A stretch of 64,000 nucleotides of DNA from Escherichia coli. Its GTDB lineage: Bacteria > Pseudomonadota > Gammaproteobacteria > Enterobacterales > Enterobacteriaceae. A program made the position numbers and the translations under genes. Under the pieces are notes generated by a model, which saw nothing but the letters and a program-made list of their open reading frames with translations, had not been told where the DNA came from and did not search any database. Shown in pieces: positions 40,791 to 45,108 of this stretch (positions are counted from its first letter, which is position 1; every line of letters starts with the position of its first letter). The stretch is from NCBI RefSeq assembly GCF_003018235.1, contig NZ_CP027438.1; one strand, written 5' to 3'.

Positions 40791-41183
40791 TTAGATCAGG
40801 TTTTGCATCTTCACCCTAGCCGCTTTCAGACGGGCCTGTTCACCGTCATCCTGAGAGTATTCTGGTGAAACTGTACTCTGAAGCCCTCCCAACGCCTTCA
40901 GTACCTCTTTTAAATCACCGGAGGAGGGTTTCCAGCCTGTTATCCTGGCAATCTGACTAATGACCTCATCCGCATTCAGTTCTCTGGTGAATAGCGCGGT
41001 TAACACGGCGGGAATTCGCTCATCAAGCTGATGCATTATCAGGCCGGTTATCAAAGCCTGCCGATATAACTCCCCCCGTTTTTTCCGGGGAACAGTTTCG
41101 ATTTCAGCCAGTGCAAGACAATCGGCAGAGTCCTCCGGGTGAAGGTAGAGTGAAAGTTTTTTCCTTTCTTCGCCGTCGTACAT
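40791..41183 (-). CDS. stbB: StbB/ParR-type centromere-binding protein
   Basis: 130 aa immediately downstream of the actin-like ATPase gene. Confidence 0.7.
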   Translation of the reverse strand: MYDGEERKKLSLYLHPEDSADCLALAEIETVPRKKRGELYRQALITGLIMHQLDERIPAVLTALFTRELNADEVISQIARITGWKPSSGDLKEVLKALGGLQSTVSPEYSQDDGEQARLKAARVKMQNLI

Positions 41184-41186
41184 CGA

Positions 41187-42182
41187 TTACTCCTCCGCTT
41201 TGAAGCGTGCAATAGCCTGGACCAGCGCTGTCTGAGGTTCATCCATAAGAACCACCTTTTCGCCAAGGTGGTTCCATGCCTTACGAACAGCATCAGCAAT
41301 GAGTGCTGCCCCGCCACCGACAATATATACGCGGTTTACGTTTCGATACTGCAGCAAATCATCAACAACTAGCTCGCCCAGTTTATTTATCGCTGTATCA
41401 ATGGTATCCAGCACCAGATTTAGTTTAGAGACCTCATTTACAACCTGCCCCACAAAATCCAGGTTCTTCCTGTTTTTGATCAACTCGTCAGCAATCATTG
41501 GACTGGTATCACTGCTGGCCATTTTCAGTGCAGTGAGCGTGGCTTTCGTGACCATTGATACACCAATATCAGGATTACCATGTACTGCCGAAACATCCTC
41601 AAACTGGCCAACAATAACCCCGACATCCAGAGTTGTACCACCGAGATCGATAACCAATGATTTTTCGTACTGACCAACATTGTCAGCAACTAGGCGAGTA
41701 AATACAGCCGGGAGTGATTCAGGCATCACTTCAACGCTTTTAATGGTAAAAGTTCCCCCTTTGTTCAGGGTGACTTCCCGCATCAGGTTGCGAATTTTTC
41801 TCTCAATGTTAAGCGTATTTTTCTGGCAGTCGGCCGTGTAAAACTCGCTGATAGGTAACGTAACAGTGAGATCGATCTCCTGGGGTTCAATTCCACTGTT
41901 CAGTAATGCGTGGTGAACTGCCAACACATTTGTATCAGAGTACTGATACTCAATATGAGTCGTGCTGATCGCATCTTCGCTGACCGGGTCGTAGGTATAT
42001 TTACGGCCATCAAGCAGATAGTTATAGGTACGACTGCTGCCTAAGCCCTCGACTTTCCAGTTATGGCGAAAAGAGTTCACTGATACCGCACTTTTCAGCG
42101 TCTTGCCTTCAAACCAGGCAAGTTTCACATTTGTAGAACCATCATCGCAAAAAATTTTCATACCATCTCCATTTATACTCAA
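41187..42182 (-). CDS. stbA: StbA/ParM actin-like segregation ATPase
   Basis: 331 aa; actin-fold phosphate motifs (DDGSTNVKL, VIDLGGTTLDV, IVGGGA). Confidence 0.8.
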   Translation of the reverse strand: MSINGDGMKIFCDDGSTNVKLAWFEGKTLKSAVSVNSFRHNWKVEGLGSSRTYNYLLDGRKYTYDPVSEDAISTTHIEYQYSDTNVLAVHHALLNSGIEPQEIDLTVTLPISEFYTADCQKNTLNIERKIRNLMREVTLNKGGTFTIKSVEVMPESLPAVFTRLVADNVGQYEKSLVIDLGGTTLDVGVIVGQFEDVSAVHGNPDIGVSMVTKATLTALKMASSDTSPMIADELIKNRKNLDFVGQVVNEVSKLNLVLDTIDTAINKLGELVVDDLLQYRNVNRVYIVGGGAALIADAVRKAWNHLGEKVVLMDEPQTALVQAIARFKAEE

Positions 42183-42399
42183 TTTGAGTGTTCATCTTCG
42201 CCCAATAACTACTCACATTAAGTAAATATGTTCATAAACCACAGGTAAGTACTCAAACTGCGTACTTCACGGGGGCAGTTAACTACTCAATTTGAGCATT
42301 ATATCATTTATCTTGCAGCAATCTAGCATTTATCTAGCATAAATCTTGCTGCAAGATTCCACACAAAAAAAGAATGCAGCAAGATTGCTGCATCCCGGA
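42183..42399. repeat. centromere-like repeat array between parB and stbA
   Basis: Repeated AACTACTCA/TACTCA motifs (42176-42298) and TTGCAGCAAGATT-type motifs (42300-42400). Confidence 0.55.
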
Positions 42400-42774
42400 T
42401 TAATAGCTCTGTTTTTCCTTATATGCCTCAACTGCTTTTTCCAGAACTTCCACTAGTTTCAACCCCTCACGCTCTGCGATATCCCGGATCTCTTGGTCGA
42501 AAGCAGGTGTGACACGTGTTGCAAATGCCAGCGTCCTGTTTGTCTTTCTGGCAGAACGGCCATCGCGGCGGGTATATGCCTCGGTCACTGTTTGCGTAAC
42601 CACAGGCTCATGGTGCACTGGCGATGAGTCTGCCTGTTGTCTCTGAATATCAGTGGCAGCGACAGCCGGAGCTATCTCAGGCGCATTCAGGCTGGTAGCC
42701 ACTTCGTCGGGGCCCGGGGGTACCCCCAGCCCACCACGGGTCCTTTTAGTCTTAAGTTTTGATGCATCAGCCAT
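42400..42774 (-). CDS. small ParB/ParG-like centromere-binding protein
   Basis: 124 aa, basic N-tail, C-terminal RHH-like segment; start overlaps parA stop. Confidence 0.55.
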   Translation of the reverse strand: MADASKLKTKRTRGGLGVPPGPDEVATSLNAPEIAPAVAATDIQRQQADSSPVHHEPVVTQTVTEAYTRRDGRSARKTNRTLAFATRVTPAFDQEIRDIAEREGLKLVEVLEKAVEAYKEKQSY

Positions 42775-43406
42775 TACTCTTCTCCAATCTTATCGATGAG
42801 TGCCTGGATAAGTTCATCAGCTCTCTCGTTTAAACCTTTATAACGTGTTTCTGTCACTGCGAGTCCTGAATTCATCGCTTTTCTGTATGCTGGCTTCTCA
42901 AAAAGGCATCCAGATAAAGTTTCATAACCTGCTTCACTGATATATGCACGAGCATCCAGCTCTTCCGCTTCGGTACCTACTCTGCTTAAAGCGAAGACCA
43001 GTTTTGAACGTGGTACACCTTCTTTTACCAGCGCGTTGAAAACTTTAATGGCCGGGACAAGATCGTCAAGGGAGGCCCCCGTTGGCTGGACGATAAGGTC
43101 GGCGACCTTAGCAATTTCTGAAGTCCCTTTGCTTGCACGAGCTGGGCCATCAAGAATCAGAAGGTCAAAATCGCCGGCAGATTCTATCGCCTGCTTTGCT
43201 GTTGAAAACACTTCAACTGAAGCAACCGGTGGCAAACCAGCTGACAGACGTCGACGATGCCACTCAGCACTCGTTGCCTGTTCCAGGTCGAGATCAGCTA
43301 ATTTTGTTTTGATGCCACAGGCGGATGCTTCACGCGCTAACGCTCTCGCTTTAGTGCTTTTGCCCACACCACCTTTCTGGGAAATAAAACCAACTATCCA
43401 GGCCAT
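42774..43406 (-). CDS. parA: ParA-family (type Ib, ParF-like) partition ATPase
   Basis: 210 aa; deviant Walker A KGGVGKST. Confidence 0.8.
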   Translation of the reverse strand: MAWIVGFISQKGGVGKSTKARALAREASACGIKTKLADLDLEQATSAEWHRRRLSAGLPPVASVEVFSTAKQAIESAGDFDLLILDGPARASKGTSEIAKVADLIVQPTGASLDDLVPAIKVFNALVKEGVPRSKLVFALSRVGTEAEELDARAYISEAGYETLSGCLFEKPAYRKAMNSGLAVTETRYKGLNERADELIQALIDKIGEE

Positions 43407-43700
43407 TTAGCCTCCTTTACTTGCTGCTATCTTGCAGCAAACATAGATATAAACCAAGTTGAGGTTAGGTAAAATAACTCTTCCAGAACAAGATAACAGC
43501 TTGCAGCAAGATTACAACAATCAAAAATCTAGCAGCAAGATTTAATCTTGCTATTCAGAAGAGTGCTGGAATTGACTGCCGAATACTTGTGTCACGTTAA
43601 CAATAATAAAAGCTGCAAGCTTTATGCAATCTTGCAGCAACAATAAAAGAAAACTCATTCAGAATTGCATCGACAGATGCAGCAAGATTGCCACAAGCAT
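43407..43700. repeat. array of GCAGCAAGATT-like repeats upstream of parA
   Basis: At least six copies or inverted copies (CTTGCTGCTATCTTGCAGCAAAC, GCTTGCAGCAAGATTA, CTAGCAGCAAGATTTAATCTTGCT, AATCTTGCAGCAAC, TGCAGCAAGATTGCC). Confidence 0.6.
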
Positions 43701-44059
43701 GCACACAGCAAAACATGAGCTGAGCGCTATGCTATACCACCAGAAAATGATTGTCTGGAAACTAAGTCACTATAAGTCCCGGCATCTACAGGCAGCATGA
43801 TATAAGCAATCTATTTTATTGCAGCTATCATGCTGAAAGATTGCTGTTAGAATCAGGCAGCGCTCGCCGCAGCCATGTAACCGAGCGTAGCGAGCGAACT
43901 GGCGAGGAAGCGAAGAGGTATCGTTCCTGCAGATAGCTCTTACGCTCAACACAAGAATATTTTTCCATCCTCTGTGGGAAACAGGTCAACGTCGTGGACG
44001 GCCTGATCTGCGGGAAACACCACAAGTATAGGCGCACACGGATAGCCTGTTCAGGGCAA

Positions 44060-44160
44060 TAAGTGTGACAATCTACCCTCATGTATAGTGACAAATCACC
44101 CTCAACCTGCCGGATCAAATGTGACGAACCACCCTCAAATCTGTGACAGATAACCCTCAA
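44060..44160. repeat. incC-type iterons downstream of repE
   Basis: Four direct repeats of about 19 bp (GTGACAATCTACCCTCA, GTGACAAATCACCCTCA, GTGACGAACCACCCTCA, GTGACAGATAACCCTCA). Confidence 0.75.
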
Positions 44161-44161
44161 A

Positions 44162-44917
44162 CTATTCTGTTGTCATCGAGGTAATATCACGGAAGGAAAA
44201 TACGATATGAGTCGTCTGGCGGCCTTTCTTTTTCTCGATATAAGAGAGGCGCATTGGTGTCCGGCTATTGATCTCATCAACACTTGCCTGCAGGAAACGC
44301 CGGCGAAAATCCGGCATACGTTGGTAACTTTGAGGTAGCTGGTAGCGCTCCATGATCCAGTCGATTTTCAGGGACACGACACCTGAGCCATCAGGTTTAC
44401 GGTACTGACACAGGGATTCGTATAAACGCATGGCATACGGATTGGTAATCTCTTTTGTTTCACTGAGCCGGAACTGAGTAAACCGGTTTTGTAGCCCGAT
44501 GAAAAAGGGAATGAGATATGGGTTGATATGTACACTGTAAATCCCTCTGGATGGACTGTGCGCACGTTTGATAAACCAAGGAAAGGATTCATACCCTTTT
44601 TCATCACCGGCATCCTCTTCAGGGCGATAGAAAACCACTTCCTTACCCGCAAAACCTTTTAAAGCCTGTCGAATATCCTTACTGGCTTCAGCGGAGGTTA
44701 GCCCGAATGTTTCAGCGTATTTAGCAACGTGAATTTCGCAGATGCCATCAGGTTCTTGCAGGGAGCCGTCGGATTTTCTGATCTGGTCAACGAACAGATA
44801 CAGCATACGCTTTTGATCCCTAGAAAGACTATATGCCGCCTCAGTCAGCTCATTTGACTGGACAATCCGCGGGCTATTTTTACGTTTTTTATGGTTTATA
44901 ACCGCTATTTCCGCCAT
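44162..44917 (-). CDS. repE: RepFIA replication initiator RepE
   Basis: 251 aa from [51 protein letters not shown]...; palindromic operator AGTGTGACAGATTTTTAGATTGTCACACT at 44932-44962. Confidence 0.9.
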
Positions 44918-45012
44918 GACAGCTCCATGTGAAGTGTGACAGATTTTTAGATTGTCACACTTCATAAAACAGAGTCAACAGGGATGGATAACTTTGTGAA
45001 AAGCAACACCAT

Positions 45013-45108
45013 CTGAGGGCAATTTGTCACAGGGTTAAGGGTGATCTGTCACAGAAAGGACTACTATTTGAGGGTGATTTGTCACATTGAAAGGGCGGTT
45101 TGTCACAG
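45013..45108. repeat. ori2 iterons upstream of repE
   Basis: Four 19-bp direct repeats TGAGGGCAATTTGTCACAG, TAAGGGTGATCTGTCACAG, TGAGGGTGATTTGTCACAT, AAGGGCGGTTTGTCACAG. Confidence 0.8.

Follow-up and report, generated by a model that had tools for sequence, protein, structure and literature searches.

Several partition systems described for plasmids resemble, each in part, the locus that is the subject of this study, a pair of adjacent segregation operons in a 64,000-nucleotide stretch of Escherichia coli DNA (assembly GCF_003018235.1, contig NZ_CP027438.1; the whole stretch is referred to as the window). At the double par locus that the EPEC plasmid pB171 carries, an actin-type (type II) system adjoins a small Walker-type (type I) one, the two diverging around the site parC1, and ParB reportedly regulates across this double locus, to go by the title of a 2007 study by Ringgaard and colleagues. 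The pB171 parAB operon has cis-acting sites both upstream and downstream (PMC7602700). In the case of the IncI1 plasmid pESBL, the ParABS system was validated as a true type Ib system by mini-F stabilisation, green fluorescent protein foci and electrophoretic mobility shift assays (Genes 2020, PMC7602700), and it provides an experimental precedent for dual repeat arrays combined with a small, unannotated ParB (PMC7602700). Small ParA proteins, ribbon-helix-helix (RHH) centromere-binding proteins with a flexible N-terminal tail, and repeats acting as both centromere and operator are also features of the ParFGH system of TP228 and of delta/omega from pSM19035. Combinations of a type I system having an RHH ParB with a type II system have been counted in 971 PLSDB accessions and called previously reported (McPhillips et al. 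2026, PMC13245405).

Here, we find that the window probably contains the core maintenance region of an E. coli plasmid of mosaic IncFIA/IncFIC type, in which replication, partition and addiction functions are stacked and two segregation machines lie in tandem. The original prediction for this DNA, a multi-replicon F-type plasmid with stacked maintenance functions and a type II locus adjoining a small type I locus, holds in these respects, and the functions that it placed within about 27 kb extend over 27.4 kb from relE to ccdA. To a large extent this is a correct but ordinary inventory of plasmid maintenance functions; what is newly seen here is that the layout is tandem, that parAB is of a lineage also present on IncP-6 and Xanthomonas plasmids, that the ParB proteins with their predicted RHH domain form an unannotated family, and that a predicted terminator is made of ParB sites. 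The window has a near-identical twin in NZ_CP076711.1, a 69-kb plasmid of E. coli O158:H23 (99.8% identical, with 99.1-100% identity everywhere but 34389-37623). Because the identity is so high, the annotation of the twin by the Prokaryotic Genome Annotation Pipeline (PGAP) could be transferred to the window, where it was checked against the open reading frames (ORFs).

On the coding strand, the elements of the cassette follow one another in the order upstream repeat array, parA, parB, downstream repeat array, ParR sites, parM, parR and a truncated impC (impC') (Table 1). The minus strand carries stbB/parR, parM, parB and parA together with the incC iterons, repE, the ori2 iterons, the resD remnant and ccdBA. 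An actin-type stbAB locus next to a small ParA/ParB pair had been correctly foreseen, but its description as back-to-back is misleading, as the two loci follow each other head to tail, both on the minus strand. The repeat-rich intergenic region that they were said to share does exist; since the loci are tandem and not divergent, however, it consists of the downstream ParB-type array beside the ParR sites, and there is no shared divergent promoter region. The overlap of parA and parB is 1 nt (start/stop) at 42774, and the 238-bp spacer between parB and parM is bipartite, with the type I downstream array followed, after a gap of about 10 bp, by the type II parC.

The two arrays of GCAGCAAGATT-like repeats that had been noticed flank parAB and go beyond chance as judged by shuffling. 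All five exact matches of the 11-mer GCAGCAAGAT in the 64 kb fall inside the arrays, 16 of the 34 matches with at most two mismatches are concentrated in 560 bp, the repeats in both arrays are about 50-fold denser than in the rest of the window, and none of 100 shuffles equalled the observed counts. Two weaker 11-mer copies, at 43792 and 43832, lie beyond the main upstream array. On the downstream side the sites are palindromic pairs of the heptad TTGCWGC, and directly 3' of the parB stop codon two inverted heptads form the stem of a terminator-like hairpin (RNA fold -16.2 kcal/mol, z -4.05), whose stem and T-run are also reported by a terminator scan. With this U-run following the first ParB palindrome, one and the same sequence seems to be both a ParB site and an intrinsic terminator. 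A hairpin at this place is kept in five loci including the window (counterparts at 5391-5430 of L008, 3903-3942 of L013, 3864-3910 of L012 and 4965-5004 of L004), four of the five with the U-run, which suggests transcriptional insulation of parAB from the parMR operon.

ParA is a small Walker-type ATPase with a deviant Walker A box (KGGVGKS, residues 11-17) and no N-terminal extension. It aligns with the NCBIfam ParA_partition model over 202 of 203 positions (E 4.7e-27), yet scores under the equivalog cut-off, and a structure match links it to ParF of TP228 (E 7e-7). ParB is more elusive by sequence, and its domains became apparent in an alignment of 21 homologues: a conserved N-terminal tail of 36 residues (consensus MADASKLK..R..LG.PPGPDEVATSLNAPE.AP), a variable Pro/Ala-rich linker, and a conserved C-terminal domain of 55 residues. 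A profile of 51 sequences of this last domain matched the RHH protein ORF56 of pRN1 (2k9i/3ft7; E 8.7e-4), in an alignment spanning the strand and both helices, followed by SvtR (E 0.038) and omega of pSM19035 (E 0.6). An earlier AlphaFold2 model of full-length ParB was poor, with a predicted local distance difference test score (pLDDT) of 65 and weak Foldseek matches; the domain alone, modelled from a deeper alignment, reached a pLDDT of 86, with 94-97 in the core. When this domain model was compared with the PDB using Foldseek, nearly all of the top 40 or so matches were RHH proteins (ORF56, Arc, CopG, MatP, AmrZ, NikA, SvtR, CdbA, ParG), with probabilities of 0.97-0.98, target-normalised TM-scores of 0.75-0.86 and root-mean-square deviations of 1.1-1.8 Å. 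Profile and model together argue, with moderate strength, for an RHH fold of the ParB C-terminal domain. An exhaustive profile search with the domain gathered 440 clusters at 50% identity; Pfam scans of its remote relatives returned one weak HicB match only. One protein found by profile search (P0192, 306 aa) joins an N-terminal ParA-type ATPase part to a ParB-type, RHH-like domain at residues 250-306, and is a fusion that occurs in nature or else an artefact of gene calling across the parA-parB overlap. In its compact Walker-type ParA (members of the class have about 200-220 aa), its small ParB with a probable RHH domain, and its parA-parB operon beside arrays of short repeats, the locus agrees with a type Ib system, and sequence comparison did not reveal the pair to be unrelated to characterised type Ib loci, the outcome that would have spoken against the original prediction.

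Several observations weigh against the interpretation of parAB and its arrays as a partition system. ParB has no significant match in Pfam, in NCBIfam or, as a single sequence, in the PDB, and a 21-member profile likewise gave nothing meaningful. The ParB domain is so small that its Foldseek E-values do not fall below 0.2, and its monomeric AlphaFold2 model lacks the beta-strand. A sigma-70 scan upstream of parA and parM gave no convincing promoter, with site counts not above those of shuffled sequences, and the downstream array may in part be merely a terminator. Finally, no functional test of this parAB lineage was found in the literature searched; the parABC genes of IncP-6 are named there and only described.

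The type II half is more conventional. Its ParM matches the structures of R1 ParM (E 3e-82) in an alignment running from residue 8 onward, and since this agrees with the start annotated by PGAP in the twin, the true start of parM is M8 of a 331-aa ORF, whose beginning at 42182 is a spurious extension. ParR matches pB171 ParR/StbB (PDB 2JD3; E 5e-34). Directly upstream of parM, two sites CTCAAATTGAGTA are the only exact copies of this 13-mer in the window, and two degenerate copies lie between them; the same motif precedes parM in pMAR2 and in the Providencia, Salmonella and Klebsiella grimontii loci. An actin-like ParM, a ParR encoded downstream of it and repeated upstream sites, to which ParR is predicted to bind, make up a type II ParMRC system.

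The identities and homologies of the genes, the statistics of the repeats, the conserved architecture, the fold of ParB and the replacement of sop were addressed directly, and for DNA binding, ATPase stimulation, autoregulation, termination and stabilisation we draw on the precedents of pB171, TP228, pSM19035, pESBL and R1. By analogy with these systems, ParB dimers would bind, via the RHH domain, the TTGCWGC heptads upstream and downstream of parAB, and the N-terminal tail of ParB would stimulate the ATPase of ParA, so that gradients of nucleoid-bound ParA-ATP might space the plasmid copies. The upstream array, the presumed centromere, would double as autoregulatory operator of parA, and the heptad hairpin with its U-run would end the parAB transcript. 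In the second machine, ParR would assemble on the four CTCAAATTGAGTA sites ahead of parM and capture the ends of ParM filaments, whose polymerisation would push paired plasmids apart. To these, ccdAB, stbDE and hok/sok contribute post-segregational killing, and the FIC-type replicon supplies a second origin.

The relatives of the cassette bear on whether its order has a meaning. In tblastn searches, in which ParA and ParB alignments cover 96-99% of the query, ParA is 78% identical to its homologue on a Providencia plasmid and 62% identical to that of Xanthomonas citri pXcB and the IncP-6 Pseudomonas plasmid pMRVIM0713, the last two being the same protein accession; ParB is 46-54% identical to the IncP-6 and Xanthomonas homologues. 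The window parAB belongs to a lineage common to IncP-6 and Xanthomonas plasmids and not to that of pB171. The heptad TTGCWGC is enriched upstream of parA and right after parB in all seven loci compared (ParB identity 46-100%), and since this includes the three loci without parMR, both arrays go with parAB, and a layout with two sites is ancestral in this lineage. A query that comprised the four par genes and both arrays, but neither impC' nor the outermost upstream sequence, was matched at a coverage of at least 80% in 301 PLSDB plasmids (from E. coli, Klebsiella and Salmonella); among them is pETEC_73 of enterotoxigenic E. coli E24377A, which has an IncI-gamma/K replicon. Tandem cassettes of diverged sequence in Providencia, Salmonella and K. 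grimontii have the same order and the bipartite spacer, with umuDC or imp genes downstream. In the Klebsiella copies, ParA is 99% identical (ParB 94%) despite a DNA identity of 93-94%, which points to purifying selection.

These data have to be weighed against the view that the tandem order is an accident of mosaicism, leaving two independent, uncoupled par modules, one of them perhaps redundant or silent in its host. We regard this as a serious possibility that falls somewhat short of being probable. Members of the parAB lineage live without parMR in Enterobacter ludwigii, pXcB and pMRVIM0713, the pB171-type parMR is paired with a different parAB in pMAR2, the terminator-like hairpin stands between the two operons, and the plasmid is strongly rearranged by insertion sequences (IS), all of which an accident would explain. 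Against it, the order and spacing from the parB stop codon through the hairpin, the ParB palindromes and the ParR sites to parM are kept in four genera and on different replicons at a ParB identity of only 55-61%, and the arrangement persists in the 301 plasmids with all four genes intact. At the opposite extreme, the cassette would be an integrated composite segregation unit, in which ParB cross-regulates the parMR promoter or both complexes assemble on one centromere of about 220 bp, the hairpin renders parAB termination, and any read-through into parMR, sensitive to ParB occupancy, and ParB founds an unannotated RHH family of about 440 clusters. The closeness of the downstream ParB array to the ParR sites is compatible with such a unit, which we nevertheless consider rather unlikely.

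It could also be argued that the TTGCWGC repeats are transcriptional elements only, operator and terminator, the partition site being elsewhere or parAB not being a partition system at all. The first downstream palindrome is indeed a good intrinsic terminator, the final upstream copies lie in operator-like fashion 20-35 bp ahead of the parA Shine-Dalgarno sequence, and pXcB has just one palindrome on each side. However, the second and third downstream palindromes, of the form ATCTTGCWGCAAGAT, have no U-run, the upstream array is far longer than an operator needs, the Walker box of ParA is of the partition type, and the small type I systems of pB171, pSM19035 and pESBL use the same repeats as operator and centromere (PMC7602700), so that we judge this explanation improbable. 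Our reading of the locus is that of two independent segregation machines in tandem.

The original prediction was also reminded of the double par locus of pB171, a comparison that we made through the pB171-like EAF plasmid pMAR2 (NC_011603, of strain E2348/69) and that stands for one half of the cassette. In both, a type II locus adjoins a small type I locus and parAB is flanked by repeats on either side; ParM is 66% and ParR/StbB 46% identical, with one motif at the ParR sites of both. In contrast, the identity of ParA is just 29% (E 6e-14), ParB has 124 residues in the window as against 91 and yields no BLASTP alignment (hhalign probability 0.1), and the parM-parA intergenic (parC1) region of pMAR2 lacks TTGCWGC and has another ParB repeat. 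The pB171 loci diverge around parC1; those of the window are in tandem, with the downstream array next to parM. With the pB171 par2 family the locus thus has the two cis sites in common, but not orthologous ParA and ParB proteins, nor the same repeats and divergent layout. That the locus is an inverted direct ortholog of the pB171 one, as the parMR half and the similar surroundings (umu/imp beside stbB, resD and ccdBA beyond parAB) might suggest, is very improbable and is refuted for parAB, which has its nearest relatives on plasmids of Providencia, of Xanthomonas and of the IncP-6 group.

With the IncP-6 plasmids (Rms149 family; pMRVIM0713) and pXcB the window shares, besides the ParA/ParB lineage, a GCAGC palindrome upstream of parA and after the parB stop codon. 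These plasmids differ in having a single palindrome per side and either a third gene, parC (NCBIfam NF041544; E 6e-36 in pMRVIM0713), or a zeta-toxin neighbour, whereas in the window the arrays are multi-copy, parC is lacking after parB, and parMR lies downstream. By description, pESBL resembles the window: it has a small Walker ParA, a small motif-less ParB labelled hypothetical, and direct and inverted short repeats upstream and downstream, but its repeat is the octamer GATAACAA, its ParB has 100 aa, and no adjoining parMR is described (PMC7602700). Similarity to TP228 and pSM19035 is remote (omega at E 0.6; ParG as a weak Foldseek match), and their repeat units are different. R27 (IncHI1), which also has one ParA-type and one ParM-type module, was weighed as the nearest precedent for a tandem layout and dismissed, as its ParA has 417 aa and its ParB-family protein 335 aa, and its modules are divergent with four genes between them. 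A description of the tandem cassette was not found in the literature, where only descriptive genome papers came up; the library searched was limited, so a prior description is possible.

The importance of these findings is modest, since the stacking of replicons and addiction modules is textbook knowledge for IncF plasmids. Nevertheless, hundreds of plasmids in E. coli, Klebsiella and Salmonella have this parAB lineage, and many of these plasmids are conjugative. PLSDB has 459 records with ParB homologues, and since all of the records listed label them "hypothetical protein", automated surveys will score the par locus as incomplete. As a naturally occurring tandem arrangement, the cassette can also be set beside the divergent pB171 locus to study coexistence and cross-talk of two segregation machines. 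In pETEC_73-type (IncI/K) cassettes, compared over window positions 43606-43720, homology ends near 43606; the outermost upstream repeats, at 43612-43689, are therefore confined to the versions linked to RepFIA or present in Klebsiella, and cassette lineages differ in how many upstream sites they have. In some Salmonella contigs (L008 and L009, positions 1-3000) the tandem par cassette lies beside chromosomal-looking or metabolic-looking genes (a DeoR regulator, an SIS/CBS protein, MgtC, GlgS) and not in a plasmid backbone.

At this RepFIA replicon, moreover, the cassette has cleanly taken the place of sopABC. ccdAB, the ori2 iterons, repE and the incC iterons have the same order as in F, with 86-90% nucleotide identity to an F-like plasmid (85.7% for the repE/ori2 region); the differences are the swap of sopABC for the par cassette, the fragmentation of resD, and the presence of four iterons on the incC side in the window. 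In an alignment with the F-like plasmid (DUF1281, sopC, sopB, sopA, repE, resD, ccdBA), homology extends up to 40419, resumes at 43859-43981, and continues from 44088. Because homology breaks at these points, the 3.4-kb cassette (about 40420-43858, comprising the arrays, parAB, parMR and impC') occupies the exact place of sopABC. Neither sopA, sopB, sopC nor the 43-bp sopC repeats were found in the window, in agreement with the prediction that this RepFIA replicon, with its repE and its four ori2 and four incC-type iterons, had lost its usual sop genes. The same junction between repE and the cassette recurs in 126 PLSDB records and is thus that of an established lineage, not of a recent accident. 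The twin was typed by MOB-suite as IncFIA, IncFIA and IncFIC, and non-mobilizable. An ORF start for repE at 44965 is a spurious upstream extension. The resD-like resolvase is cut to a 62-codon remnant, as had been noticed, and annotated by PGAP as frameshifted and incomplete; only two resD pieces of the window align with the intact integrase gene of pMAR2.

Table 1. Coordinates of the par cassette and of the neighbouring replication and addiction functions in the window
Feature	Position	Strand	Description
impC remnant	40528-40707	+	Remnant of an impCAB/umuDC-type operon; left cassette end, breakpoint about 40420; "impC protein" in the twin
stbB/parR	40791-41183	-	Centromere-binding adaptor, 130 aa; Pfam Plasmid_stab_B E 3e-28
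parM/stbA	41187-42161	-	Actin-like segregation ATPase, 324 aa; Pfam StbA_N E 1e-68, ParM_N E 4e-43
Type II parC (predicted)	42176-42298		Centromere/operator; four near-palindromic ParR-type sites CTCAAATTGAGTA, 34-40 bp spacing, directly upstream of parM
Downstream ParB-type array (parC2 analogue)	42309-42391		Three palindromic pairs of heptad TTGCWGC, extended to ATCTTGCWGCAAGAT
Terminator-like hairpin	42361-42396	-	Directly 3' of parB stop; 11-bp stem of two inverted ParB heptads, U-run
parB	42400-42774	-	Predicted centromere-binding protein, 124 aa; C-terminal domain probably RHH
parA	42774-43406	-	Small (type Ib) Walker-type partition ATPase, 210 aa; Pfam CbiA/MipZ/AAA_31
Upstream ParB-type array (parC1 analogue)	43428-43689		Presumed centromere and operator; 11-mer present about 9 times, in direct and inverted orientation, over about 260 bp
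F-type incC-sopA intergenic remnant	43859-43981		123 bp; right breakpoint; 83% identical to L007 15362-15480 (between repE and sopA)
incC-type RepE iterons	44065-44159		Four, beside repE
repE	44162-44917	-	RepFIA initiator, 251 aa; Pfam Rep3_N and Rep3_C; PGAP repE in the twin
ori2 iterons	45013-45107		Four, the fourth degenerate; then AT-rich stretch and two DnaA-box-like GTGGATAA repeats, to about 45222
resD-type remnant	45420-45608	-	Tyrosine recombinase, 62-codon ORF; Pfam Phage_integrase E 2.9e-4 over HxxR stretch; more fragments to about 45690
ccdB	45691-45996	-	Toxin-antitoxin pair with ccdA
ccdA	45998-46216	-	Toxin-antitoxin pair with ccdB
stbE	18829-19116	-	RelE family, 95 aa
stbD	19113-19364	-	Phd/YefM family, 83 aa
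repA1	20327-21184	-	IncFII-family replicon; ORFs and PGAP names agree
tap	21177-21251	-	IncFII-family replicon; ORFs and PGAP names agree
CopA antisense RNA	21269-21356	+	Rfam CopA, 81 bits
copB	21482-21739	-	IncFII-family replicon; ORFs and PGAP names agree
hok	22023-22172	-	Hok/Gef annotation
sok antisense RNA region	22160-22317	-	Rfam sok, 86.8 bits

The second replicon had been read as RepFIIA. Its components repA1, tap, copB and CopA are all present, but the twin was typed as IncFIC and not FIIA, and the subtype used here is this MOB-suite call. Of the addiction functions, ccdAB, the relBE-type pair (stbDE) and a hok-family toxin with its sok RNA are where they were expected; the StbDE proteins of the twin have the same accessions as the pMAR2 pair, and an identical pair of 83 and 95 aa is named StbDE in pB171 (PMC2762410). 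The count of at least four toxin-antitoxin or addiction modules was too high: there are three, each in a single copy by tblastn, and a fourth was found neither in the PGAP annotation of the twin, nor by tblastn for extra copies, nor among the ORFs of 34389-37623. Beside hok/sok, at 22442-25866, lie genes for a peptidase-domain ABC exporter and an HlyD-type partner of the microcin/colicin V export type, and at about 15500-17400 there is a colicin-like pore-forming gene, a frameshifted pseudogene according to the twin annotation; these exporter and colicin genes may be what had been counted as an extra addiction module.

The segment 34389-37623, the sole one in the window without a counterpart in NZ_CP076711.1, coincides exactly with the circular junction of that record and is F-type leading-region DNA, with an SLT transglycosylase (34744-35346) and split DUF932 ORFs. 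Two copies of IS100 (IS21 family) lie at 9993-11948 and 55443-57397, and many fragments of IS3, IS200 and IS66 are scattered across the window; the order of segments differs from that in NZ_CP076711.1, which indicates IS-mediated rearrangement. At about 28300-34423, the F-type transfer region is cut down and decayed, finO and traA being frameshifted and traX and traB interrupted by ISEc31; only traM-traK remain, and the FinP and traJ 5' untranslated region RNAs are still recognisable at 33840-33949. Because of this truncation and decay, the plasmid is non-conjugative. Matches at the Rfam gathering score were obtained for the small RNAs AS-pc02, isrC and isrN, at 27893-28077, 29498-29620 and 2920-3063. 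At the end of the window, from about 61332 to 64000 on the plus strand, a type IVb pilus operon begins with a major pilin, a TcpQ-family protein and a secretin, resembling the bfp/longus/CFA-III class, and the remainder of the operon is annotated in the twin (GspE-like ATPases, a prepilin peptidase and a lytic transglycosylase).

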